A DNA stretch of 64,000 nucleotides from the NCBI GenBank assembly GCA_041500225.1, contig JBGQLV010000003.1, positions 215 to 64,214 on the forward strand, read 5' to 3'. The DNA is from Thermodesulfovibrionia bacterium (GTDB lineage: Bacteria > Nitrospirota > Thermodesulfovibrionia > Thermodesulfovibrionales > SM23-35). Shown one piece after another: positions 7,811 to 52,943 of the stretch. Position 1 is the stretch's first letter, and every line of letters begins with the position of its first letter. Position numbers and translations under genes: made by a program. The notes beneath the pieces were generated by a model. It was not told where the DNA came from. It did no database searches and saw only the letters and a program-made list of their open reading frames with translations.

Positions 7811-8500
7811 CTAATTCTTTATGTATCCTTTTTCCATCATACTTGTATATTTCCCATCTCCTATGATTACGTGGTCGAGAACCTTTATGCCGACTATCTC
7901 ACCCGCATTGAAAAGCCGGTCTGTTATAGATATATCTTCACGGCTTGGGCTTGTATCACCGCTTGGGTGATTGTGGACAAAAATAACAAATGCTGCTGAT
8001 TCCTTTATCGCATCCCTAAACGCCTCGCGAGGATGTATCAATGAATTGGTGAGCGTTCCTTCAGAGACACGGCAATCTTTGAATATCCTGTTTTTTGCAT
8101 CTAACATCGCACAGTGGAAGACTTCTTTCTTCAGATTCTTAAAACGTCGGTTATAGTATGAATACACATCCTTGCCGGATGAAAAAACAGGACCTTTTTC
8201 ATTAGGTTCTTCAAGCATCCTTTTCCCGAGTTCAAAGGCAGCCTTTAGTTGTGCAACTTTTGCATTTCCCATGCCCTTGAAAGACGTAAACTCCACGAGA
8301 GATGCATTTTCTATATTTTTCAGGTCTCCAAACGAATTCAAAATCTCTATCGCAAGGTCAATAGCACTCTTGCCTCCTCCTCCAGTACGAAGTATTATTG
8401 CAAGGAGTTGCGCCTCTGATAGATTATGGGCGCCGTGTTTTAACAGCCTTTCTCTTGGTCTTTCGCCTTCAGGCCATTTTTTGATACTTTGATATCCCAT
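7811..8500 (-). CDS. radC: RadC-family JAB-domain protein
   Basis: An N-terminal HhH region (ERPRERLLKHGAHNLSEAQLLAIILRTG) and the JAMM motif HNHPSGDTSPSREDI are present. Confidence 0.85.
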   Translation of the reverse strand: MGYQSIKKWPEGERPRERLLKHGAHNLSEAQLLAIILRTGGGGKSAIDLAIEILNSFGDLKNIENASLVEFTSFKGMGNAKVAQLKAAFELGKRMLEEPNEKGPVFSSGKDVYSYYNRRFKNLKKEVFHCAMLDAKNRIFKDCRVSEGTLTNSLIHPREAFRDAIKESAAFVIFVHNHPSGDTSPSREDISITDRLFNAGEIVGIKVLDHVIIGDGKYTSMMEKGYIKN

Positions 8501-10044: not shown

Positions 10045-11889
10045 ATGAAAACTAAAATCATACGAATTCTGAGCCCCCTTTCTTTCTTAATATTATTCTC
10101 CACATTTTTTTATATCTACCTTTCAGCATTAAACCTCTGGGATTATGACTTCTGGTGGCATGCCGCAACAGGAAGATACATTGTAACCGAAGTGCATCTT
10201 CCGGAAAAAGACCCCTTTTCTTTTACCTCAGCAATGGAAGAAAACAAGAATCCTTTTCCTGAAAGGGAAAACTTCTTTTTAAAACAATACTGGCTTGCAC
10301 AAATCCTTTTTTATATTATCTTTGATTATACAGGGCCAACCGGCATAATCTTTCTAAGAGCCGTAATTCTTTTTTTCACAGCAATAATCGTTTACTGGCG
10401 GTTGCAGAGGTCTGGGGTCAGCTTCTACATATCCTTTGTTTTTGTATTTATTTTTTTCATGATTTCGATGAAGTCTCTGGGCGAAAGGCCTGTTCTGTTT
10501 TCGATATTCTTCACTTCTGTCGTATTTTTCCTTCTCGAGGATTTCAAGGACAGAAAAGGCAAAACGTTGTTTTTGCTTGTACCTGTAATGCTTCTCTGGT
10601 CAAATATGCATGGCGCATTCATCCTTGGGGTAATCATTATCTCGGTATTCATGTTTGGCGAGATGATTAAGATATTTTTCAAAAAGAGCGGTCTTACGAA
10701 ACGAGAAATGAGGATTTTTTATGGCGCAACAGGTTTGGCGCTCATTTTTTCATTTATAAACCCTGCAGGTTGGGATGCCTTTTTTATGGCACTTTCACCC
10801 AAATATGATATATTCCTGAAAGGCATACAGGAATATCAATCACCACTTTATTTCTATATAAACAAGATTCGCACTCTTGATTATGCATACTTTACTATTA
10901 CCTTAATGTTCCCTGTGATATTGATTTTGAGGAATAGAAAGATTGAGTTAATACATCTAATACTCCTTTCTGGTTTTTTTGTTATGGGTTTAAGGGCTTC
11001 TCGGTATGGGATCTTTTATGCTGTTGTGGGTTCAATGATTATGGGGAAGGAGTTCAATGCCTTAATTAATGAGGTAGTTAAAAAAAGGGTCTCGGATGGA
11101 TTTAATAAAAAAATCGAATGTGGATTTGCTATTGCTGCCTTGATTTCCGCTTTGCTTTTTACCATCGGTTACTTTAAATATGAAAACCTCAAATTCGGGA
11201 TAGCAAATAGGAGCACCATCCCTGAGGCAGCAGTGAATTTTATTGAGACAAATAAAATACAGGGCAATATGTTTAATGATTACGGATTTGGAGGATATAT
11301 TACATGGAGACTTTATCCACGAAAGAATTTTATTGATTCTCGCGCATTGAACAGGACAGTAATGAATGAATATGGGTGGTTAGTCGATGCTACGAAAAAA
11401 GTTGAAGGGATTAAAACAACAAATGATAAAATTCCTTTATGGGAGACCCTGCTGAATCACTACAAGATAAACTTTGTTTTTATGTCCCTGATGGATGCAT
11501 TCGGCCAAGTTTTTCCATTGATACTTGAACTTGCTGAGAGCGATAAATGGGTACCAATTTACCTTGATCAGATGAGTGTTATATTTATTAAAAACACGGC
11601 TGATAATAGCTACATAATCTCAAGATTTAAAGTTCCTGAAGATGATGTTTATAATGTACTCATTGCTAAAAGTACAATTTTAGCAATGAGTGACAGAATT
11701 AATCCGAGGTACTTTATTTCCCTCGGCTATATTTTTTCGAAATCAGGCAGATACGATGACGCATTAAAGGCATATAAATATGCCTCTGAACGGTGGAAAG
11801 ATCCCGACCTTGAAAAGAAGATTAAAGAGATAGATGCAGAGATTGACAAGCAGAATACGTTGCCTAATAAAGGCACTAATAAAAAATAA
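10045..11889 (+). CDS. Polytopic membrane protein with a C-terminal soluble TPR-like region (possible GT-C-type glycosyltransferase)
   Basis: The protein is 614 aa. More than 10 hydrophobic segments occupy the first ~380 aa, and the C-terminal part is soluble (YDDALKAYKYASERW). The family was not recognised with certainty. Confidence 0.45.
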   Translation: MKTKIIRILSPLSFLILFSTFFYIYLSALNLWDYDFWWHAATGRYIVTEVHLPEKDPFSFTSAMEENKNPFPERENFFLKQYWLAQILFYIIFDYTGPTGIIFLRAVILFFTAIIVYWRLQRSGVSFYISFVFVFIFFMISMKSLGERPVLFSIFFTSVVFFLLEDFKDRKGKTLFLLVPVMLLWSNMHGAFILGVIIISVFMFGEMIKIFFKKSGLTKREMRIFYGATGLALIFSFINPAGWDAFFMALSPKYDIFLKGIQEYQSPLYFYINKIRTLDYAYFTITLMFPVILILRNRKIELIHLILLSGFFVMGLRASRYGIFYAVVGSMIMGKEFNALINEVVKKRVSDGFNKKIECGFAIAALISALLFTIGYFKYENLKFGIANRSTIPEAAVNFIETNKIQGNMFNDYGFGGYITWRLYPRKNFIDSRALNRTVMNEYGWLVDATKKVEGIKTTNDKIPLWETLLNHYKINFVFMSLMDAFGQVFPLILELAESDKWVPIYLDQMSVIFIKNTADNSYIISRFKVPEDDVYNVLIAKSTILAMSDRINPRYFISLGYIFSKSGRYDDALKAYKYASERWKDPDLEKKIKEIDAEIDKQNTLPNKGTNKK

Positions 11890-11966
11890 GGTAAGGATAG
11901 GACTGCGGGGACGGGGACAGATATAAATATCAAAATTCGAGATTTCTTTTAAAATAGTTTTTTAAA

Positions 11967-13787
11967 ATGGTGATCAATATGCTTTTGATTCCTACATCAA
12001 ATAAAAAACAGCTTATTATATTAGGTATCCTTGGGATTTTTTTTCTCGGTTTAGCCATTTATTCAAATGTTCTTCATGCCCCTTTTGTTTATGATGACAA
12101 AGGTGCGATTACAGAAAATGAAAAAATAAATAGCCTCTCGGAATCATTCACCAACTTATCGAACAATCGGTATGTTGGTTTTTTAAGTTTTGCTTTTAAC
12201 TATTCAGTGGGAGGTGTGAATGTTTTTGGTTATCACATATAAAATAATCTTATTCATATTATTAATGCTATCTTGGTTTATTATTTTATAATCCTTATTT
12301 TTAAAACTCCTAAAATGAGAGACTCACCGCTTTCAAAAGAGTTTATAGCCTTTTCGACTTCCTTTATATTTATTGCACATCCATTACAAACACAGGCTGT
12401 TACATATATTACTCAGAGGTTTACCTCTCTGACCACGATGTTCTACCTTATTGCTGCAGTCTTTTATCTGAAGGCAAGACTTAGCTCAAAGAGTAATGAG
12501 TCAAGACAATTTTTCCCCAATCTAAAATTTCTTGCATCATATCTTATATCCTTTATTTCAGCAATTCTTGCAATGAAGACAAAAGAAATTGCTTTGACAC
12601 TGCCATTTGCTATTGTCATGTGCGAATTATACTTTTTCGGATTAGATAATAAAAAATTAAGAAGGTTTGCATATCTGTTGCCCATGCTGATGACGTTATT
12701 GATAATCCCGTTAGGGACTCTTAAATTTAAAGAATCTTTAGGTGATATTGCGGCGGATGTTGACTATGTGTCAAGAGAAACAGCTAATATATCAAGGACT
12801 GATTATTTAATCAGTCAATTTAGGGTGATTATCACATATCTTAGACTGTTATTCTTCCCTGTTAATCAGAACCTGGACTATGACTATCCAATTTATAAAA
12901 CGATATTTTCCTTTGACATATTTTTGTCTCTTATCGTGATACTCTTCATTATTGCTATTGCTATCTGGACATATAAAAGAGCAAAGCTTGTATCTTTCGG
13001 TATCGCATGGTTTTTTCTTACCCTTTCTGTTGAATCAGGCATTATCCCTATACGCGACCTCATTAATGAACACAGGGTATATCTCCCTTCCATAGGTTTT
13101 TTTGTTACCTGTGTAGCAGCATTTGATCAGACTCTTTTGTCAAGGAAGATAAAGATTGGATTAGTCGTAATTTTGGTTTCCATACTGTCGCTATGTACTT
13201 ATAGCAGAAATAATATCTGGAGAGATCCACAAATATTATGGGAGGATGTTATTGCCAAGGCTCCTAACAATTCAAGGGCGTATAACAATCTCGGAGTTGT
13301 CTTTAAGGAGAGGAAAGAGTTTAAAAGAGCTATTGAACAGTTTGAGAAATCATTAAGAGCAAATCGGAACTATACCGCCGTCTATTATAATCTGGGGGAT
13401 GTTCAATATAGACTTGGAAATTATGAAAATGCTATTGTTTATTTAAAACAAGCCCTGACAGGTAAACTCGATCCACAGTTACATCTGGATATTCTAAACA
13501 AACTTGGAAGGACTTACAGTGCTATGGGACAGACTAAAAAAGCCATAGAAACATTCGAGGAAGCTATAAAATTATTTCCATCCTCGGTAGTTCTGCTTAA
13601 TAACCTTGGTGTTCAATACGTGAAAAATAATCAGATTGATTCTGCAATAAAGATATTCGAAAAAGCGATAAAGATAAGAGGGGAAAAGTATCTTTTAGAT
13701 AATCTTGCATTAGCATACACAAAGAAAGGAGATGAAGAAAAAAGTAGATTAATGCAGCAAAAGGCATTAGAATTAGGAAATAATTAA
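11967..13787 (+). pseudogene. TMTC/PMT-like membrane glycosyltransferase with C-terminal TPR repeats, interrupted by an in-frame TAA
   Basis: The ORFs 11967-12242 and 12273-13787 are in the same frame. The stop at 12240-12242 sits inside the conserved G-Y-H-x-x-N-x-L-x-H motif (GYHI*NNLIHIINAILVY). The C-terminus carries several TPR repeats (AYNNLGVVF, VYYNLGDVQ). Confidence 0.7.
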
Positions 13788-19778: not shown

Positions 19779-20549
19779 TTAGCAGTTTTTACCTCTATTA
19801 TTTTTTTTCTCTTTGATGAATATTGATGATTTTATTATTCCGGACTTCTGTAAAGCATATTTAACCGAGACTGCAAGTACGCCTAATCCGTATTTCACAC
19901 TCCTTGCAAAATTTATTGAAGATGCATCTTCAAAATATCTGATAGGGCAGCTTATCTCTCCTATCTTGAACCCAAAATAAGCTGCCTGAGCAAGAATCTC
20001 ATTGTCAAAAACAAAATCATCGGAGTTTTCTTCAAGAGGTAATGTTTCCAGTACCTTACGATTGAAAGCACGGTAACCTGTATGGTATTCCGAAAGTTTG
20101 ATGCCAAGCAACAGATTTTCAACAAACGTAAGAAATCTGTTTGCAATATATTTGTATAAAGGCATCCCACCCTTCAGGGCATTACCTCCAAGTATCCTTG
20201 AGCCCAGTACGACATCATAATGACCAGATACAATCATAGAAGCCATGGCAGTTACAAGGAGCGGAGAATACTGATAGTCAGGATGAAGCATGACAATGAT
20301 ATCTGCACCGTGTCTCAGTGCTTCACGGTAACAGGTTTTCTGATTTGCGCCATATCCCGTGTTTTTTCTATGTACTATTGTTTTAATGCCTAATTCTTGG
20401 GCTATCTTTGCAGTTTGGTCACTCGATGCATCATCAACAAGAATAACATCATCTACATATTCATGAGGTAATTCAGCATAGGTCTGGCGAAGTGTCTTCT
20501 CAGCGTTATAGGCAGGCATTATGACAATCAGTCTTTTATTGTGAATCAT
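19779..20549 (-). CDS. Family 2 glycosyltransferase (polyprenyl-phosphate glycosyltransferase-like, soluble type)
   Basis: The motifs [16 protein letters not shown] and HPDYQY are present. Confidence 0.8.
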
Positions 20550-46083: not shown

Positions 46084-46647
46084 TTAAATCTTCTCATAAA
46101 TCCACACCCTTCCGCCATTTCTTATCTCATCTATTCTCTTCACAAGCCTTTTCTTATGAAGATTTAATAACCGTGTCCCGCTTGTATTAGCCTCAAGCTT
46201 CATAGTCTTTGAAAGCTCACTGGCTGTAATTTTGCTCTTTTTTACAATAAGATTCAAGGTCTCTTTGAGATAGTTATTAAGGCTTCCGAGAAGGACCTGT
46301 TTACCATCCCTCATATTGGCAATAACTGCGAGTTCTTTTCTCTCGAGTGCAACCTCAATGTTTTCCTTCTGGTTTTCATTTAAACCTTTGAGAATAATAT
46401 ATTTATCCCCATATTCTCCGCTCAAAAGCCTTGAAACAAGTTTCGCCACAATCTCATCAGCGCATGAATAATCAATTATCCCGACCTTGGAGAAATCAAG
46501 GGCAATGACCTCTCCATCTTTCTCCTTTACAATATCACGCTCAATCCTCTCTCGTACCACCTGCCCCGATGGACGAGTAACGAGATCACTCGAACCGTTC
46601 TTGAGTTCTTCTTTTAGGAGTTTATAAAGGTCATAAATTTGCATCAT
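46084..46647 (-). CDS. STAS-like (DUF4325-type) domain protein with C-terminal winged-helix
   Basis: LVTRPSGQVVRERIE...VIALDFSKVGIIDYSCADEIVAKL resembles DUF4325. The C-terminal ITASELSKTMKLEANTSGTRLLNLHKKRLVKR looks like a wHTH. Confidence 0.55.
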   Translation of the reverse strand: MMQIYDLYKLLKEELKNGSSDLVTRPSGQVVRERIERDIVKEKDGEVIALDFSKVGIIDYSCADEIVAKLVSRLLSGEYGDKYIILKGLNENQKENIEVALERKELAVIANMRDGKQVLLGSLNNYLKETLNLIVKKSKITASELSKTMKLEANTSGTRLLNLHKKRLVKRIDEIRNGGRVWIYEKI

Positions 46648-46665: not shown

Positions 46666-47043
46666 TTAATCTGATTCATTATCACCCTCAATGTTTAGAT
46701 GCAATCTGTGTAAAAACCGGTGATATATCGGGGCAAAAAGTACTGCAACAAATGTAAGGAATGATATGCCGCTGAACAATGCATAAAAGGCGGCAAATAA
46801 TTTCCCTGCATATGTATTCAAATGATCAACCGGCCCCATTCCAGTCAAAATCATCGAGGCATTTAGAAAAGCATCGATCCATGAAAGTTCTCCCCAAAAA
46901 TGATAACCCGCTGTTCCGATTCCAATTGAGAAGATTAAGACTATCAAAGAAAAACCGGCATATTTTATTTGTCTATGAATGAATTCCTTACGGTTTAATA
47001 ATGGTTTCTTATGATGTTCAAACATAAATAATCGCTTTCGCAC
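46666..47043 (-). CDS. Small two-TM membrane protein resembling an ion-channel pore module
   Basis: The layout is TM1, then a pore-helix-like WIDAFLNASMILTGMGPVD, then TM2. TGMGP stands where K+ channels carry TxGYGD, so the filter is not canonical. Confidence 0.45.
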   Translation of the reverse strand: MRKRLFMFEHHKKPLLNRKEFIHRQIKYAGFSLIVLIFSIGIGTAGYHFWGELSWIDAFLNASMILTGMGPVDHLNTYAGKLFAAFYALFSGISFLTFVAVLFAPIYHRFLHRLHLNIEGDNESD

Positions 47044-47054
47044 TTTCGACTTTT

Positions 47055-47642
47055 TTATATAAAGACATCACTATAATCAACCTCAATCCCATTTTTGACC
47101 TTTTTGTAATAAATAATCTTTGCAGGCAGTTCTTCACTTAAAGATTTCTTGCTCTTATACGTCTCCGGTTTTATTGATATAGGAATGTCTCCAATATAAC
47201 CATCGATACCTTGAGATTCTTCCGTTTTTTCAGACAGTCTGTATCCAACTCCTTTAATGTCGGCACCCTTCTTCAAAATTGCTTCTTGGAATTGAAGACC
47301 AATAAATGTTTGAACAATGACAAGGTCTCTTACCCATTCTTTAACGATATTTTCATCAATTTTATCCATTGCATCTTTAAGATTTTTAAGCATAGCCAAT
47401 ATTTTTTCTTTTGCAGCTTTGATGGCATCAGGATATCTTTCAAGATACCACTGTTCCCATTCATCTAGGGTTCTTCCTGCAAATTCCTGTATCAAATCAG
47501 TGAGTTGACCGACAACTTTTGGTCTTGTACCCTGAGCATTCTGATTGGCAAGATTTATTATCTGACTAACATATTTAGGGAATTCCGGCTTTAGTATTTC
47601 AAGAGATTCTCTGATCGCTTCATTCGTTAGCTTTATTTTCAT
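47055..47642 (-). CDS. Type II restriction endonuclease, MjaI-family-like
   Basis: Its start overlaps the stop of the methyltransferase gene. GRTLDEWEQWY...GIDGYIGDIPISIKPETY matches my recollection of MjaI-family enzymes and a D...(S/E)xK nuclease motif. The family assignment needs an HMM check. Confidence 0.5.
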   Translation of the reverse strand: MKIKLTNEAIRESLEILKPEFPKYVSQIINLANQNAQGTRPKVVGQLTDLIQEFAGRTLDEWEQWYLERYPDAIKAAKEKILAMLKNLKDAMDKIDENIVKEWVRDLVIVQTFIGLQFQEAILKKGADIKGVGYRLSEKTEESQGIDGYIGDIPISIKPETYKSKKSLSEELPAKIIYYKKVKNGIEVDYSDVFI

Positions 47643-48940
47643 TTTGGATATCTATTCCCTTCCTTTTTCATTTGAAGAAATTTATCTTTGTATTTGAAGG
47701 TTATAGAAGAATCAACATCAGCAAGGTTGTTTTTAATCAGATGGGCATTTATAAAAGTTTTATTCTTAAGATAGAGATAACACAATAAATTTTCTTCGCT
47801 GTCATATTTTGTATTATCAAATTTTAGGAATACCTTTTGCCCTTTTAATTGCTTCTGCAAAAATTGCAGTGCTTGTCCGTTCATTCCCTTTTTCTCTTTA
47901 ATCCCAATCAATCTGACTTTTAAATCATTATCCAGAACAACAAGCGCAGGGCTTATAATTTCCTTTACTGCATAATAGGTCTCTCTCTGATGATCTGAAT
48001 TGTCTATCTTTGAACCAAATTTCAATTTCTTCGGATCAATTTTTTTATCGAATTTAACAGGGTCTTTAAAGATATAAGGAAGTTTGAGGATTTCTTTTTT
48101 AAAATCTATGACCTTCTTTTTCTGCATTATTATTTCAAAATCCTCCGGCTTCCTATTTATGTTAAGTTTCTCTTTAATTATGGGCAGAAAATCTTCATTG
48201 ATTTCATATCCAATAGAATTCCTGTTTAAATTTTTTGCTGCCAAGCAGGTTGTCCCACTTCCTAAAAACGGGTCAAGGACAGTATCTCCAATAAAACTGA
48301 ACATTTTTATCAATCTTTTTGGCAATTCCTCCGGGAACATTGCGAGGTGGTTGGTCTGCCTTTCACCGGAGAAATTCCAGTGACCGTAGAAATATTCATT
48401 CCATTCTTCGAGGGTCAACTTGGATTTTTCTTTTATTTCTCTGCTCACTTTTGGCGGCTCACCCAATTTCTTAAAAATTAAAATAAACTCATAATCGAGC
48501 TTAATGATTCCATTTCGAGGATAAGGAAATGACCCCATGATCGTGGCGCCACCTGTTGTATTGCAAGTCGTGACCTTCTGCCAAATAATGGCTCCCATGT
48601 AATCGAATCCAATTATCTCACAGAACTTGATTATTTCTTCTCTTATAGGAATGACTTTATATCTGCCGTAATAGACTGAACGTGCAAATTGATCTCCAAT
48701 GTTCACGCACAAACGACAGCCTTGATGTAAAACACGATAGCATTCTTTCCAGACAAGATTTAGGTTATTGATATAGTCCTCATAGCTGTCATTGAAGCCA
48801 ATCTGAGAGCCATTGCCATAGTCTTTCAATTGCCAATAAGGCGGGGATGTTATGACGAGATGAACGCTTTCATCCTTGAGTTCGTCCATCCCTCGGCTAT
48901 CGCCGATGATTATGGTGGTTTTAGGTTTTACAATATCCAA
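47639..48940 (-). CDS. Beta-class N4/N6 DNA methyltransferase fused to a C-terminal SNase-like (OB-fold) domain
   Basis: Motif IV (SPPY, in VITSPPYWQL) lies N-terminal to motif I (DPFLGSGTT). The C-terminal ~120 aa resemble thermonuclease (VRLIGI..., LLCYLYL...INAHLIKNNLA), but the RLxGIDxPE metal and catalytic residues read RLIGIKEKK. Confidence 0.85.
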   Translation of the reverse strand: MDIVKPKTTIIIGDSRGMDELKDESVHLVITSPPYWQLKDYGNGSQIGFNDSYEDYINNLNLVWKECYRVLHQGCRLCVNIGDQFARSVYYGRYKVIPIREEIIKFCEIIGFDYMGAIIWQKVTTCNTTGGATIMGSFPYPRNGIIKLDYEFILIFKKLGEPPKVSREIKEKSKLTLEEWNEYFYGHWNFSGERQTNHLAMFPEELPKRLIKMFSFIGDTVLDPFLGSGTTCLAAKNLNRNSIGYEINEDFLPIIKEKLNINRKPEDFEIIMQKKKVIDFKKEILKLPYIFKDPVKFDKKIDPKKLKFGSKIDNSDHQRETYYAVKEIISPALVVLDNDLKVRLIGIKEKKGMNGQALQFLQKQLKGQKVFLKFDNTKYDSEENLLCYLYLKNKTFINAHLIKNNLADVDSSITFKYKDKFLQMKKEGNRYPK

Positions 48941-49099
48941 TTATTAGAACCATCCCCTTTTCTTCTATTTTGCTAATTCTTTCAGATAAGGGATTGAATC
49001 AACATCACACGAGCCGCCAAATTTTGGAGAAGTAAGGACGTTCTTTCTTCTGATGTCAGTTATGTTGTCTATATCAGGTATTTTTAATTGCATAACAAG

Positions 49100-50110
49100 T
49101 TAATTAATAGCTGTAGATTGTTTGAGTAATTTGCTTATATTGGGTTTATTAGATGTTTTCAACATTTCTGATTCTTGCCCCTTAAAAATAGTATTTACGG
49201 GGGGAATATTCCATACATTGCTTGCATCGCAAAGCCATCTATCATGAAAGCTTGAGAGTATATTCTGGTCAATTACAATTCTCCATTCAATAGTTATCCC
49301 TTTATTATGTAATTCAGTCTTTAATCTCAAAAATTCATTCATTGCTGACTGTGTTTTATTTTGATCGCCAGAAATTATAACGAAGCTATTTATCTTAGAA
49401 GCATTGAGAATATCGGCAAGAATCTCAAAGGCCTTTTTATCAAAATGTTTATCTATCCAGAATGCTGTTCCCTTTAAGGATTTTATTATTTCTTGTAGTC
49501 TTCTTATATTTGAAAATGGCGTTTCTGGTGAAATAAATTGATGAGCAGGTATCTGCGCAATATCCTGCTGCCATAAGACTTTGACATCTCTAGTATTTTT
49601 GTTATAAGAAATAATACCACCAAGTTTTAGAATTTCCAGAAAGTTATTAAGCTCAACATCTTTTGGGAATGCAAGGTAGAAATGGTGATGTTTTAATAAA
49701 TTGTAAATATTTATTCTTTTAATATTTTTACTACCGCTTAAAATTTGAGAAATTAAAATAACGGCTGGATGCAGTTTAAGCGTATCACCTATAATCCTTT
49801 TAGCTTCGACCCCATCGTTTCTTATATACTTTTGGTTATAATATTTTTTACCAAGAGATGTTAGTGATACGCTTATTTCTTTAATTTTGGATTCGATCTT
49901 TTTGTTCATTATGAGGGTGTACCCTTGAACAACTTTCTCTTTTTCTTCAGTCTTTATGAGACCAATGCTCTCAAGGAATGTTGTTTCGTTATCGTAGTCT
50001 GCGATCTTGGACAATTCGTCATGAGCAATTCGCTTTATCAATTCATCAAAATACTTCCATGGGAGATTTGTTATGGTATATTTAGTATCCTTAGTTGTGG
50101 CATCGTCCAT
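49100..50110 (-). CDS. Hypothetical protein: helical/wHTH-like N-terminal two-thirds plus a C-terminal domain with an HDR motif (possible MIT_C/PLD-like fold)
   Basis: The ORF is 336 aa. The C-terminus (FWIDKHF...SFVIISGD...ITIEWRIV...SFHDRWLCDASNVWNIPPVNTIFKG) resembles the PLD-like C-terminal domain of MITD1-type proteins as I recall it. Its start overlaps the upstream stop (TAATG). Confidence 0.6.
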   Translation of the reverse strand: MDDATTKDTKYTITNLPWKYFDELIKRIAHDELSKIADYDNETTFLESIGLIKTEEKEKVVQGYTLIMNKKIESKIKEISVSLTSLGKKYYNQKYIRNDGVEAKRIIGDTLKLHPAVILISQILSGSKNIKRINIYNLLKHHHFYLAFPKDVELNNFLEILKLGGIISYNKNTRDVKVLWQQDIAQIPAHQFISPETPFSNIRRLQEIIKSLKGTAFWIDKHFDKKAFEILADILNASKINSFVIISGDQNKTQSAMNEFLRLKTELHNKGITIEWRIVIDQNILSSFHDRWLCDASNVWNIPPVNTIFKGQESEMLKTSNKPNISKLLKQSTAIN

Positions 50111-50799
50111 TATTTGTTCTCTCCAAAAACAGACACTTTAGCAGTAGAAATATTTTTAAAAAGTTCTTCAATAGCTTCTTTAGATGTCCCAATATCCAAA
50201 TTTATATTTAGATTAAGGATTAATTTAATATCTCCAGAATGAGGTTTGAGAGGCGCAATTAATGATTTTTCAGTTCCTGTTTCCCCACGAACTTTTTCTT
50301 TCGTTTTATCAGAAATTCCAACTGCATGTTTTTTCTGCGGTGATTCTAATGATTCAAAATTACCACTACTATTGATAATATCTCTTAGAGCTAAAAAACA
50401 GTTAGTTATCATTGTTAGCATGCTTTTTTTAACGTCTGTAAAATGATTTCTAAAATAGTTCCTTACAACAGTGTCATTTTCTATGTTCAAAGCATCTTTT
50501 ACGGTATCAAACAAATCTTTGTATACAACAGTTGTTTTTTCCTCTAAACAGGCTTTGAATTTATCAGGCGTACCTCGTAAATCATTTGCAGATAAATTTA
50601 ATGTATTGCTCTCATCAAGAAACTCTAAGGTTTTTAACATGGCAAGAACATAACTTGGTGATCCGATGTTGAGTGTTTTAAGCTTTTGTTCGTTTAATTG
50701 GGTAGGTTCTTTTCTCTCATGGATTAGTCTAAAAATATTGATCGTATCCCCACGTCCGGCATAGGGTAATTTTGGTTTTTCTACCGCAGCTTTAGTCAT
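50110..50799 (-). CDS. Hypothetical protein, DUF5343-like N-terminus
   Basis: The ORF is 229 aa with a strong AAGGAGG SD. KLPYAGRGDTINIFRLIHERKEP..L....LKTLNIG.PSYVLAMLKTLEFLDES resembles the DUF5343 N-terminal pattern as I recall it. Confidence 0.55.
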   Translation of the reverse strand: MTKAAVEKPKLPYAGRGDTINIFRLIHERKEPTQLNEQKLKTLNIGSPSYVLAMLKTLEFLDESNTLNLSANDLRGTPDKFKACLEEKTTVVYKDLFDTVKDALNIENDTVVRNYFRNHFTDVKKSMLTMITNCFLALRDIINSSGNFESLESPQKKHAVGISDKTKEKVRGETGTEKSLIAPLKPHSGDIKLILNLNINLDIGTSKEAIEELFKNISTAKVSVFGENK

Positions 50800-50835
50800 C
50801 TAAGTTCCTCCTTTAATATTGTTTCTTTTCCTTCC

Positions 50836-50853
50836 ACACCCTTTAAAGGGTGT
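50836..50853. promoter_or_regulatory. Perfect 18-nt palindrome upstream of the two-gene cassette (possible operator)
   Basis: ACACCCTTTAAAGGGTGT lies about 37 nt upstream of the start codon at 50799. Confidence 0.3.
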
Positions 50854-50899
50854 CTTATCCACCTTCTGGTTAATAAAGCTTTCTGTATCGCTCCGCATG

Positions 50900-51088
50900 T
50901 CAATGTAAAATTTCATTCTGTATAGCTGCATCAATAGTGCTATACCAATCTATATAATCACCAAGTTTATCTTCAATGATCTCCAATTCTTTTTCAGAAA
51001 GCTCTCTTCCGAATTCTTCCTCAGCAACATTTTGAACATCTTCAATATTGATAGAGTAAATAATTTTTGAGGTATCAATCATCCTCAT
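50900..51088 (-). CDS. Small acidic hypothetical protein
   Basis: I chose the start at ATG 51088, which has a GGGAG SD 8 nt upstream. The 62-aa product is rich in E and D. Confidence 0.4.
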   Translation of the reverse strand: MRMIDTSKIIYSINIEDVQNVAEEEFGRELSEKELEIIEDKLGDYIDWYSTIDAAIQNEILH

Positions 51089-51269
51089 TAGTAATCTCCC
51101 TTCACCCATCTTTAAAAAAGAGGGGGATAGATTAATCAATGCTATACCCTATAATTATATTCAACTGAATCAATTGAATCATAAATTTAAGATATTTGTC
51201 AAGAGAAAATTTTGGCAGAGTTTGTAATCGATATACTTTGTGAGATGAATTACAAAGGAGTTTTAATTG

Positions 51270-51434
51270 CTATGAATATAACTTGTTCCAGGCCTCTATC
51301 ATCTTTTTATATGCTGCACATTCGGACATATCATCACACTCGTGGCACAAGCCGTCACAGCCATTCTCAACATAGGTAAAGCCAAGTTCTGTAATTTCTT
51401 TATGAATATTCTCTGACTGATGTGGTTTATCCAT
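51270..51434 (-). CDS. Small Cys-containing hypothetical protein (54 aa, below the ORF-track cutoff)
   Basis: My own translation reads MDKPHQSENIHKEITELGFTYVENGCDGLCHECDDMSECAAYKKMIEAWNKLYS. A GAGGAG SD lies 8 nt upstream, and the Cys spacing is C-x3-C-x2-C-x5-C. Confidence 0.35.
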   Translation of the reverse strand: MDKPHQSENIHKEITELGFTYVENGCDGLCHECDDMSECAAYKKMIEAWNKLYS

Positions 51435-51513: not shown

Positions 51514-51888
51514 TCAAGCCTCCCCTTCTGTTATTTCTACTCGGACGAGGGCGAGGATAGCAGAATGGGGCACGATCAAATACTTTTTACCTTCAAACTC
51601 GATTTCCACGCCTGATTCTCTCAGGAAGATTGCATAATCACCTTCTGATGCCTGAAGAGGAATGTATTTTACCTCTTTCTTTCTATCAACAGCCCAGGGT
51701 TCTTCTGAAACACCCGGTTCGTGAACTGCATAGCCGGGTCCTGTTTTAACGACATATCCAGCCGCTACCCTCTCCTTTTCTTTAACAGTGGGAGGAAGGT
51801 AAAGCCCTGAACTGGTCTTGCCCGTCCCTTCATCGGGATCTACAAGAACTCTATCACCAATTATTATAAGGTTCTTTTTTGCTTTCAT
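51514..51888 (-). CDS. GroES/Cpn10-fold protein (stand-alone, with insertion)
   Basis: IGDRVLVDPDE...SGLYLPPTVKEK...GYVVKTGPG...GDYAIF...YLIVPHSAILALV follows the GroES pattern. No groEL gene is adjacent. Confidence 0.65.
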   Translation of the reverse strand: MKAKKNLIIIGDRVLVDPDEGTGKTSSGLYLPPTVKEKERVAAGYVVKTGPGYAVHEPGVSEEPWAVDRKKEVKYIPLQASEGDYAIFLRESGVEIEFEGKKYLIVPHSAILALVRVEITEGEA

Positions 51889-51960
51889 ACAGATATTTTA
51901 GAATATTTCTCTTTGAAAATGTTTTAATCAAAAAAATCCCTCAAGCTCTGCTTGTTAATG

Positions 51961-52028
51961 GTCATTCCTGCGAAAGCAGGAATCCAGAAAAAACAAAGAT
52001 ACTGGATTCCGCATCAAGTGCGGAATGA
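51961..52028. repeat. Compound palindromic intergenic element
   Basis: GTCATTCC-tgcgaaagca-GGAATCCAG ... CTGGATTCC-gcatcaagtgc-GGAATGAC. The two local hairpins and the outer arms are mutually complementary. Confidence 0.7.
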
Positions 52029-52100
52029 CACACTTGTTCCTTGATTGTTCAGAAATTTGGTCTACTGTTGAATAGTTCATTTCTACATGTTCGATCAAGT

Positions 52101-52943
52101 TTACACCTCTGGCAGCATGATATTTATCTGTGCACCTGGGAAATAGGCAAGATTAAGTTCCTTTGCTTTACCTCTCGCCCATTCAGGAATTATCGAAAGC
52201 TTTGCTGTCCCTGATCGGACAGAAAGTTTACCGTTCCATTGTTTAGCAAAGCGCCTCACTGCGGATAACCCATGCCCTCTTCCTTTATCTGCATATCTTG
52301 ATGCACCATGTAGCAGTCCCTTTTCGATAGCTTCAAGGTCGTTTTTTAACGAGAACCTTTCTGATAAAGATTTTCTGAAGCCTATCCCGATATCCATAAC
52401 AGCAATCTTGACAACATTTTTCCCTATACCCTGAAAATGATATTTCTGTATCCCTACAAATCCCTTGTATTTACTGTGCTCGATTATATTCTGGCAAACC
52501 TCTGAAAGAGCCACTATAAAACCATTTATTGCATTTTCATCGTAGTTAAGATGCCTTGTGAGGATTGAATGGGCGCGGTCTTTTACTTTTCCAACAATAA
52601 AATGAATATCGTCTGATTTTTCTATAGGGGTAATCTCAAGCAGGACATCTGAATAAGAACTTCTTAAATATTTTTCTGATATTTGTGGTTTTAAAGGCTC
52701 AAGGCTGAAATATCTGTCAGCGAATTTGAAGAAGTCCATCCTTTCAAGGTATTTAAGGACTTCTTCCGATTCTGGAAGATAAAGGATTTTCTTAATACCA
52801 TCTAATTTGAAAAGTTCTCCCATCTCAAGAAGGCCAACCATTCCATAGGGGTCTGTAAAGGTTGTCTCTCGAAGATCAATTGTCGATGATTCTTTAAAAG
52901 TAGGTAAAACTTGCTCAAACGTATCTTCTGTAATCTGAGTCAT
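52101..52943 (-). CDS. STAS-like N-terminal domain fused to a GHKL (SpoIIAB-type) ATPase/kinase domain
   Basis: The N-terminus (TIDLRETTFTDPYGMVGLLEMGE) is STAS-like. The C-terminus has an N-box (CQNIIEHS), G1 (MDIGIGF) and G2 (GRGHGLSAV). Confidence 0.7.
   Translation of the reverse strand: MTQITEDTFEQVLPTFKESSTIDLRETTFTDPYGMVGLLEMGELFKLDGIKKILYLPESEEVLKYLERMDFFKFADRYFSLEPLKPQISEKYLRSSYSDVLLEITPIEKSDDIHFIVGKVKDRAHSILTRHLNYDENAINGFIVALSEVCQNIIEHSKYKGFVGIQKYHFQGIGKNVVKIAVMDIGIGFRKSLSERFSLKNDLEAIEKGLLHGASRYADKGRGHGLSAVRRFAKQWNGKLSVRSGTAKLSIIPEWARGKAKELNLAYFPGAQINIMLPEV

Follow-up and report, generated by a model that had tools for sequence, protein, structure and literature searches.

Which function might be served by two overlapping genes that lie in the most AT-rich part of a bacterial contig, close to a type II restriction-modification (R-M) operon? 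The question arises in a 64,000-nucleotide stretch of contig JBGQLV010000003.1 (positions 215 to 64,214, forward strand; GenBank assembly GCA_041500225.1) of a Thermodesulfovibrionia bacterium, referred to here at its full length as the window. Two genes on its minus strand, gene A (50110–50799, 229 amino acids (aa)) and gene B (49100–50110, 336 aa), had been proposed in an initial annotation, made from the sequence alone, to form an undescribed conflict or defence module. On the basis of family comparisons and structure models we favour, with moderate confidence, the view that A-B is a self-contained two-gene conflict module, in which B would be a DNA-cleaving effector and A its partner or regulator. 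The module may act in abortive or restriction-like defence against phages or plasmids, or it may be a closely related toxin-antitoxin-like pair. As far as the sequence goes, the outcome may be any of three: abortive infection, foreign-DNA restriction or plain addiction.

The gene pair and its conservation

The list of open reading frames (ORFs) and the sequence itself bear out the layout that was first described. The TAA stop of gene A and the ATG of gene B have one base in common (TAATG, ..AAATAATGGAC.. / ..AACAAATAATGGACGAT.., read directly), and in 10/10 related loci the start of B either overlaps the stop of A or is no more than 5 nucleotides (nt) away. Gene A begins with an ATG at 50799–50797 (−), and 7 nt 5' of this codon is the Shine-Dalgarno sequence AAGGAGG that the initial annotation had assigned to the pair (50807–50813 (−), read directly); GGAGG is kept 5' of A in related loci. 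Gene B has a weak GGAG 11–16 nt 5' of its ATG. The overlap suggests that A and B are translationally coupled. The GC content is 0.318 between 49001 and 50000, which is the lowest of all 1-kilobase (kb) bins and confirms this as the most AT-rich part of the window, and 0.331 between 50001 and 51000, against about 0.40 for the whole window.

The distribution of the two genes indicates that they belong together. In the close loci L001–L010, which were drawn from genome and metagenome collections, A lies directly 5' of B in 10/10 cases, and the same is true of two further loci, L025 and L026 (12/12). The two close families are nearly equal in size (33 clusters for B and 32 for A) and occur on shared contigs. 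Among more distant lineages of B, an A-like partner is adjacent in 7/9 that are informative (L011, L012, L015, L017, L020, L028 and L033). The partner upstream of B is a 242-aa gene with a match to the A profile (3e-6) in L011, a 229-aa protein with weak DUF5343 similarity in L017 and a 271-aa protein in L020, and in L015 the tail of the upstream partner overlaps the start of B. In L028 a 442-aa protein with a DUF5343-like N-terminus is found 4 nt upstream of B. The order is B-then-A in L033, where a 274-aa partner overlaps the B stop, and in L012, which has a partner on each side of B; the downstream one matches both DUF5343 (1.5e-6) and the PADLOC model PDC-M34A (2.7e-12). The distant partners have a DUF5343-like N-terminus or a C-terminal tail motif, and the tail, a short hydrophobic strand (for example LTLNINLNID, VVLHIDAS, ISININIS or VSITLNVQLD) followed by an amphipathic helix, is kept in all except L028. 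The initial annotation had suggested looking for co-occurrence of the two genes across genomes, and they do remain paired even where their order has changed. Since the neighbourhood is kept despite changed gene order, we regard this as good evidence of a functional, and probably physical, link between A and B.

Protein A belongs to Pfam family DUF5343 (PF17278), a resemblance that had been suspected from its N-terminus. The match has a score of 42.3 bits, above the cut-off of 27, with E 1.2e-10, and covers profile positions 1–131 of 140, and a precomputed PF17278 match exists for 31/32 close homologues. The PDC-M34A model also matches protein A (E 4.3e-11, 41.6 bits, positions 16–201 of 208). 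The AlphaFold model, which has a predicted local distance difference test score (pLDDT) of 77, consists of a helical N-terminal domain (residues ~12–150), a disordered and variable linker (~153–187, with pLDDT below 50 at residues 153–187) and a C-terminal strand-helix tail (IKLILNLNINLDIGTSKEAIEELFKNI), whose terminal helix comprises residues 207–225. Identities of the regions of protein A in the close family are 0.68, 0.61, 0.35 (linker) and 0.74 (tail), so that the tail is the best-conserved part of the protein and the linker the least conserved. The tail is the obvious candidate, judged from its conservation, for a contact element with B. Comparison of the A model with PDB structures gave no significant fold match, and weak matches to DEAH-helicase and globin structures were discarded as not significant. 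Homology between the N-terminal domain of A and the middle domain of B was considered, both having weak AAA_assoc_C matches, and is ruled out by an hhalign probability of <1%.

The initial annotation had also drawn attention to a perfect 18-nt palindrome upstream of gene A. The palindrome is present (ACACCCTTTAAAGGGTGT, 50836–50853 (−)), but it is not a conserved operator: the equivalent site is without it in all related loci compared (L001–L010, including the closest relative, the 82%-identical L001). The window holds two perfect 18-nt palindromes where composition-preserving shuffles give an expectation of 0.3, so this one is only mildly unusual. It is specific to the window and probably not a functional operator of the pair, and roles as a conserved operator or as a terminator were both rejected, given the missing conservation and the fact that it is not called as a terminator. 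The other perfect 18-nt palindrome of the window is TTGAAGATGCATCTTCAA at 19916–19933; there are no others. Promoter-like and terminator-like sites around A-B show no excess over shuffle expectation, and an Rfam scan of 44–56 kb gave no matches.

Damaged copies of the pair have also been found. In L002 (10001–10997), a Planctomycetota metagenome-assembled genome, B is split by a frameshift and A is intact, and in L027 (9110–10837) A is frameshifted and B truncated; none of the loci examined combined an intact B of the close family with loss of A. In this small sample, the pattern of decay fits an effector that would be harmful without its partner. The inactivated B beside an intact A would also suit a rather unlikely alternative, namely that A-B merely stabilises the mobile island as a type II toxin-antitoxin (addiction) module and has no dedicated anti-phage role; B would be a nuclease toxin and A its antitoxin, with a DNA-binding N-terminal domain and a disordered C-terminal tail for neutralisation. 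The likeness to such modules extends to the small antitoxin-like gene that comes first and overlaps the second by its stop codon, to the build of A (a folded N-terminal domain, a disordered linker and a conserved short end), and to the location in a mobile, AT-rich island that moves between phyla and that contains VapBC in L004 and L025. However, B is a multi-domain effector whose 336 aa in three regions make it far larger than the usual type II toxins, the gene order varies (it is reversed in L012 and L033), and the upstream palindrome, which an autoregulated operator would lead one to expect, is not conserved. Moreover, the proteins to which the C-terminal domain of B is fused elsewhere (DUF262, SNF2, STAND and retron reverse transcriptase) are defence sensors and motors. 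A toxin-antitoxin pair and an abortive defence system are compatible with each other.

Architecture of protein B

Protein B has no family match in Pfam, PADLOC or NCBIfam and none in the PDB by sequence; sequence-search matches to FecR_C, ANF_receptor, prohibitin and NSMCE1 were dismissed as noise. Its close relatives amount to 33 clusters in 5.8 billion proteins, every one from uncultured organisms. With the family profile, a full HMMER scan retrieved 506 clusters out of 1.84 billion representatives, 320 of them at E<=1e-10. Among the best 146 of these 506 clusters, 63 have the overall architecture of protein B and the rest match in the last ~145 residues only. The sole plasmid match is a weak similarity to the C-terminal domain inside a 1208-aa Leptolinea protein. 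A phage or viral origin of A-B was rejected, as no relatives were found in phage or viral collections.

The AlphaFold model of protein B (pLDDT 82.6) divides the chain into three regions. Residues 1–84, a helix and a long beta-hairpin, are variable (identity 0.41 for residues 31–84) and have many indels. The middle domain (residues 85–185) is helical or winged and conserved, with an identity of 0.72; a two-strand wing closes its helical part (85–178). After a disordered hinge (186–197) the model continues as an alpha/beta domain (199–336), and the identity of residues 186–336 in the close family is 0.73. Profile matches of the middle domain are marginal only (AAA_assoc_C in 2/29, SmtB at E 1.2 and FokI_dom_2 at 0.14), and a winged helix-turn-helix (wHTH) nature of the N-terminal two thirds, which the initial annotation had surmised, is suggested from the secondary structure of the model alone. 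The peptide motifs that had been quoted from A and B are all present. Matches of the B model to CD38 had a root-mean-square deviation (rmsd) of ~16 A and were set aside as spurious whole-chain alignments.

The C-terminal domain of B (residues ~190–336, encoded at 49103–49543 (−)) had been likened to the phospholipase D (PLD)-like fold of MIT_C-type domains, and structure prediction agrees with this. The top match of the B model in a Foldseek search of the PDB is MITD1 (2ymb_D, E 1.7e-4, prob 1.0), and a second MITD1 chain, 4a5z_B, aligns with prob 1.0 and an rmsd of 3.5 A over 98 columns. The next matches are PLD3 (8v07), FAM83 (4urj) and Streptomyces PLD (1v0s), with prob 0.97–1.0. Whole-chain TM-scores are low (0.22–0.28) because only the C-terminal domain matches. 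By these model comparisons, the C-terminal domain of protein B has a PLD fold of the MIT_C-like branch. At the sequence level, hhalign compared a profile of 32 diverse C-terminal domains with the MITD1 chain at E 0.0013 and a probability of 19%, and placed HDR opposite HDR, pairing ..ILSG..EL..GI..EWRV..HDRW.. with ..LLTS..SL..GVLLEVQYSSSIHDRE... Of all Pfam families, MIT_C is the commonest match of the same 32 domains (5/32, best E 0.0021), followed by PLDc_2 (3/32, best 0.0066). Protein B itself has no MIT_C (PF16565) or PLDc_2 match at E<=1, and a search of PDB sequences with the profile of the C-terminal domain did not retrieve MITD1.

Conservation within the family points to a possible active site. 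The HDR motif, H289-D290-R291 (codons at 49238–49246 (−)), is the predicted catalytic centre; across 147 family sequences H289 and R291 are each present in 143/144 aligned sequences, and D290 in 130. In the model these residues directly precede the strand 292–294. The predicted acidic catalytic residue, D220 (in WIDKHF, codon at 49451–49453 (−)), is D or E in 145/146 aligned sequences and ends the strand 214–220 as assigned by DSSP on the model. Near-invariant over the 147 sequences are also N201, W218, E266, N301 and P303. The arrangement described for PB-PLD1 and MIT_C, a D/E after beta2 and HDR before beta5, is thus present in protein B. The Asp at +6 of HKD-type motifs varies in the B family (S/T/D/A/G), and the conserved Asn, N301, is further on. 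By analogy with the nuclease DruE, we predict that protein B is a nuclease or phosphodiesterase.

The same domain recurs in other proteins. It is found C-terminal to GmrSD_N/DUF262, with or without Mrr_N and helix-turn-helix domains, and also after SNF2 helicases, an AAA_35/STAND-like ATPase, COR-A/COR-B domains, a TPR protein and a reverse transcriptase that PADLOC scores as retron-type (RT_III-A, 2.6e-87). By comparison with known defence proteins, these are the positions where effectors sit. Since the domain replaces the usual nuclease after DUF262, we infer that DNA could be its substrate. Among the fused proteins, P0134 (584 aa) is a retron-type reverse transcriptase with an MIT_C-like C-terminus, and P0123, P0126, P0155 and P0165 (865–1000 aa) are DUF262/GmrSD_N proteins with an MIT_C-like C-terminus; they are possible unclassified variants of retrons and of type IV restriction systems.

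Known systems and a possible mode of action

Three described effectors have domains comparable with that of B. The effector domain PB-PLD1 of Menshen (in NsnC) has MIT_C (2YMB) as its nearest structure, and an Asp/Glu after beta2 together with HDR before beta5 has been proposed to be catalytic, as has the same D/E and HDR site in the C-termini of BrxL (PMC12065111, 2025). Going by this published description, B is like PB-PLD1 and BrxL in its MITD1 fold neighbour, its D/E and HDR site and its effector position, and it is like Menshen in that relatives of its C-terminal domain are fused to ParB-like DUF262/GmrSD_N. It differs from both Menshen and BREX in having N-terminal domains of its own and a DUF5343 partner. 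Counterparts of NsnA (ParB-DUF262), NsnB (ABC ATPase) and NsnC (inactive PIN plus effector) were not found among A, B and their neighbours with Pfam and PADLOC, and there are no BREX genes at the A-B locus.

The third effector, DruE, comes from type III Druantia and offers the C-terminal domain of B its best mechanistic precedent. Its C-terminal MITD1-like PLD domains form an Asp/His/Arg pocket lined by H-x-R, and mutations in the pocket abolish both the cleavage of single-stranded DNA in vitro and Druantia defence in vivo (bioRxiv 10.64898/2026.05.13.724313). An enzymatic reading of an HDR-type PLD domain therefore has experimental precedent. The analogy has limits, as DruE is a helicase-nuclease of >2000 aa that has two PLD domains per chain and is activated by DruH on forked DNA, whereas B has 336 aa, one PLD-like domain, no helicase and another partner. 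Human MITD1 (2YMB, 4A5Z) is the best structural match of the B model and has the HDR motif in common with it; it differs in being a eukaryotic protein that binds ESCRT-III and has an MIT domain at its N-terminus, and its sequence similarity to B is marginal.

For the pair as a whole, the nearest catalogued relative is a candidate in PADLOC. The PDC entries of PADLOC are candidates for phage defence, found because their genes lie within BREX, DISARM and type I R-M loci, and one of them, PDC-M34, is a two-gene cassette (FAM_01148>>FAM_01657) that was seen 97 times (Payne et al., bioRxiv 10.1101/2024.01.29.577857). The model of its A component matches protein A as well as the L012 partner mentioned above, and both PDC-M34 and A-B consist of two genes in surroundings of R-M-type defence. 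Protein B differs in having no match to the B component (0 PADLOC families at E<=1), so that the second gene of A-B either is a different one or has diverged too far for HMMER. Nothing on DUF5343 or PDC-M34 was found in the main texts of the literature, and the combination of a DUF5343 partner with a conserved tail and a putative wHTH-like MIT_C nuclease appears not to have been described in searchable papers. The module is thus not wholly undescribed, as the initial annotation had it: the family of B is in no library, but that of A is the PDC-M34A family, and MIT_C-like PLD effectors with HDR have been proposed or shown to be nucleases in Menshen, BrxL and DruE.

If A-B is a conflict module, a possible course of events is as follows. 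A would be made in a fixed, stoichiometric proportion with B from the overlapping frame, and would bind B through its tail; in doing so it could hold B inactive, deliver an activating signal or both, so that A either senses the trigger or restrains B. The variable N-terminal region and the conserved winged domain of B would position the C-terminal domain and probably bind nucleic acid, and the MIT_C-like PLD domain would cleave DNA by means of D220 and H289-D290-R291. Single-domain PLD nucleases such as Nuc and BfiI dimerise. B, with its single PLD domain, presumably does so too. The module would travel between genes for a GHKL ATPase and a STAS/DUF4325 protein, beside a slot in which R-M systems are exchanged. 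What the data show directly is the gene layout, the family to which A belongs, the fold and conserved residues of the C-terminal domain of B, the lasting pairing and the genomic surroundings; the nuclease activity, the binding of DNA, the contact of A with B through the tail and the part played in defence are predictions made from these. If active, A-B would be a compact addition of two genes to the known immune systems of bacteria, and B, at 336 aa, would serve as a minimal model for the MIT_C-type PLD nuclease domain of Druantia, Menshen and BREX; MITD1, the counterpart of this domain in eukaryotes, is regarded as non-enzymatic. DUF5343 and the strand-helix tail that recurs in its relatives would thereby gain a function.

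Several results weigh against the reading of A-B as a DNA-cleaving conflict module. The canonical motif HxK(x)4D(x)6G(G/S)xN is not found in B (FHDRWLCDASNVWNIPPVN, with Arg for Lys), all of the MIT_C and PLDc_2 matches of the relatives of its C-terminal domain are below threshold, and MITD1 is known, at least by the title of a reference in PMC12065111, as a membrane-binding protein and not as an enzyme. DNA binding by the N-terminal and middle parts of B finds no backing in any significant match to a profile or structure. No A-like neighbour could be recognised in L014 or L021, and nine diverse relatives of B gave no PDC-M34 match at E<=0.1, so that A-B is not demonstrably that candidate. Since one island is common to the close-family loci, their adjacency to R-M genes amounts to a single evolutionary observation. 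No RNA run that contains the A-B locus was found. IMG/VR contigs, GenBank phages and BFVD contained no relatives, a result that we list here and regard as neutral.

The first three of these results are also what would be expected if the MIT_C-like domain of B were non-catalytic and bound membrane lipid or another ligand, as MITD1 does, which would make the pair a regulator, an adaptor or a membrane-targeting effector. The closest structure is indeed one described as a membrane-binding PLD fold. We consider this quite improbable, given that D/E220, H289, R291, N201, E266 and N301 are near-invariant across 147 divergent sequences, that the equivalent pocket of DruE is a demonstrated nuclease site, and that the domain takes the place of the nuclease module behind DUF262/GmrSD_N and is also found after SNF2 helicases.

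The surrounding island

The R-M operon that had been reported ~160 nt from the pair (47055–48940 (−), recognised with Pfam and PADLOC) occupies a variable slot 3' of B, and the distance from the stop of B to the start of the methyltransferase gene is 159 nt. The methyltransferase M (47639–48940 (−)) matches N6_N4_Mtase (2.6e-45) and PADLOC MTase_II (7.9e-193), and the endonuclease R (47055–47642 (−)), whose gene overlaps that of M, belongs to the MjaI family (RE_MjaI, 1.9e-67; REase_II, 4.5e-69). M has a C-terminal staphylococcal-nuclease-like domain (SNase, 1e-6, residues 356–427); the MTase_II model PDLC03259 spans the whole of M, so the SNase-bearing architecture is typical of the subfamily. 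Most of the 159-nt gap is filled by a relic of another methyltransferase gene, 42 codons of its 5' end (48971–49093 (−); 71% identity over 42 aa in tblastn), which starts 6 nt past the stop of B. The full 463-aa gene follows B in L002 and is itself followed by a GIY-YIG endonuclease gene, and relics of it are found 3' of B in L004 and L005 (57 aa), L025 and L026 (127 aa) and L006 (at least 134 aa). Relics of such varied length indicate repeated replacement of the R-M cassette.

The contents of the slot vary accordingly from locus to locus: an Eco57I-like methyltransferase, a TIR-like gene and a truncated M.MjaI-like gene (the counterpart of the M gene, cut to 342 aa) in L001, a 997-aa type IIG enzyme in L003, and remnants only in L025. 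VapBC is present in the island of L004 and L025. As to the distant pairs, the one in L020 lies between Mrr on its upstream side and type I R-M on its downstream side, an orphan methyltransferase accompanies the one in L017, and transposase or resolvase genes are present in L014 and L030. The initial annotation had proposed to look for an enrichment of defence genes around the pair; the neighbourhoods are of a defence type, with variable R-M systems, VapBC, and Mrr with type I R-M. An AT-rich location beside exchanged R-M systems, VapBC, a TIR-like gene and Mrr with type I R-M is consistent with a role in conflict.

The pair sits in a larger conserved block that the initial annotation had not taken into view. 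Its upstream boundary is a gene for a 280-aa GHKL protein (52101–52943 (−); HATPase_c, 8.3e-8), which is found 5' of A, 79–80% identical, in every close locus with enough flank (L001–L004, L025 and L026). Its downstream boundary is a gene for a 187-aa STAS-like DUF4325 protein with a probable C-terminal wHTH (46084–46647 (−); DUF4325, 1.9e-6), which closes the block at 83–85% identity in L001, L002 and L025. These two genes are better conserved between loci (79–85%) than the genes that they enclose. In the window they are parted by 5.4 kb of same-strand defence-type genes. The insert always begins with A-B, at times after VapBC or small ORFs, and continues with the variable segment. Outside the block the flanks differ, with LysS and LolCD in L001, a radical-SAM gene, RibF and PpiD in L002 and L025, and GroEL, Hsp20 and Lon in L004, and the close loci carry the organism labels Thermodesulfovibrionia, Planctomycetota and Ignavibacteriales. 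The different flanks and the differing organisms indicate that the block has moved horizontally. Plasmids of Nostoc and Cytobacillus have homologues of the ATPase and STAS genes side by side, and in another Nostoc plasmid the two are fused; from this we infer that in the lineage of the window the ATPase-STAS pair has been split by 4.6–7 kb of inserted genes.

This setting raises the alternative that A-B is an accessory of its neighbours, either of the R-M system, as a PLD-type endonuclease that has a specificity or control subunit and acts together with the 463-aa methyltransferase formerly encoded directly after B, or of a larger ATPase-STAS system. The methyltransferase gene or its relic is located 6–12 nt after B in the window, L002, L004, L005, L006, L025 and L026. 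Restriction enzymes with a PLD fold, for example BfiI, exist and provide a precedent, and the ATPase and STAS genes flank the pair in each close locus with enough sequence. Yet B is intact where the 463-aa methyltransferase is a 42-codon relic (the window) or absent (L001, L003), and therefore B does not depend on that enzyme for protection of the host; in addition, the enzyme already has an endonuclease partner of its own, of the GIY-YIG type. Distant A-B pairs occur without ATPase or STAS genes, and ATPase-STAS pairs occur adjacent or fused without A-B. An accessory role is thus very improbable.

The embedding of A-B in a split ATPase-STAS pair is its most unexpected feature. The GHKL ATPase and the STAS/DUF4325-wHTH protein resemble a partner-switching pair of kinase and anti-anti-sigma factor, and they may be a mobile carrier that crosses phyla and harbours a slot in which A-B, R-M and VapBC are embedded and exchanged, perhaps also regulating it. 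Guilt by embedding would then make the ATPase-STAS pair, too, a defence system or a regulator of defence that has so far escaped recognition. A more far-reaching proposal combines this with A-B as a new stand-alone immune system, in which the DUF5343 protein would be a sensor that gates the single-domain MIT_C-type nuclease by means of the conserved tail, with the ATPase-STAS pair as a mobile carrier that is itself involved in defence or its regulation; we offer it as a tentative idea with a small chance of being correct in full. The split pair with its swappable R-M slot is a clear natural case of embedded defence genes that cross phyla, and the arrangement could aid the discovery of further systems.

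Other genes lie within the block. A gene for a GroES/Cpn10-like protein (3.4e-15; 51514–51888 (−)) and one for a 125-aa, two-helix, ion-channel-like membrane protein (46666–47043 (−)) were seen in the window only. A small Cys-rich protein (..ELGFTYVxxGCDGxCxECxxxxEC..) is encoded between the ATPase gene and A both in the window (51270–51434 (−)) and in L025 (8802–9086).

Read depth and assembly ends in metagenomes mark two further spots. Just 3' of the ATPase gene, at ~51960–52030, are two related hairpins, CATTCCTGCGAAAGCAGGAATC and ATTCCGCATCAAGTGCGGAAT. Metagenomic contig depth there is ~900–1900 against ~5–20 in the flanks, and assemblies break at this point. The spot looks like a very high-copy community element similar to repetitive extragenic palindromes (REP) or miniature inverted-repeat transposable elements (MITE); it occurs once in the window and in none of the loci compared. 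At ~51087–51130, within the 5' end of a 79-aa ORF (LSPSFLKMGEGRLL), depth is raised and many loose contig ends are found in several sediment metagenomes, which suggests a repeat element here and a real small protein that begins at an internal Met (MIDTSK..., as in L001). A presence/absence polymorphism of the A-B region was also considered; a lone contig that skips the pair by linking 48923 to 51160 has low depth (2.9x) and 25 nt on one side, which is too weak to support it, and the lower depth that other samples show over A-B is confounded, since other genomes are recruited by conserved segments of methyltransferase genes. Finally, L004 has a 37-aa duplicate fragment of the C-terminus of the ATPase (8246–8356) after the VapBC insertion, and L025 has a duplicated fragment of the STAS gene (11793–11999); both look like traces left by insertion or recombination where the two flanking genes end.

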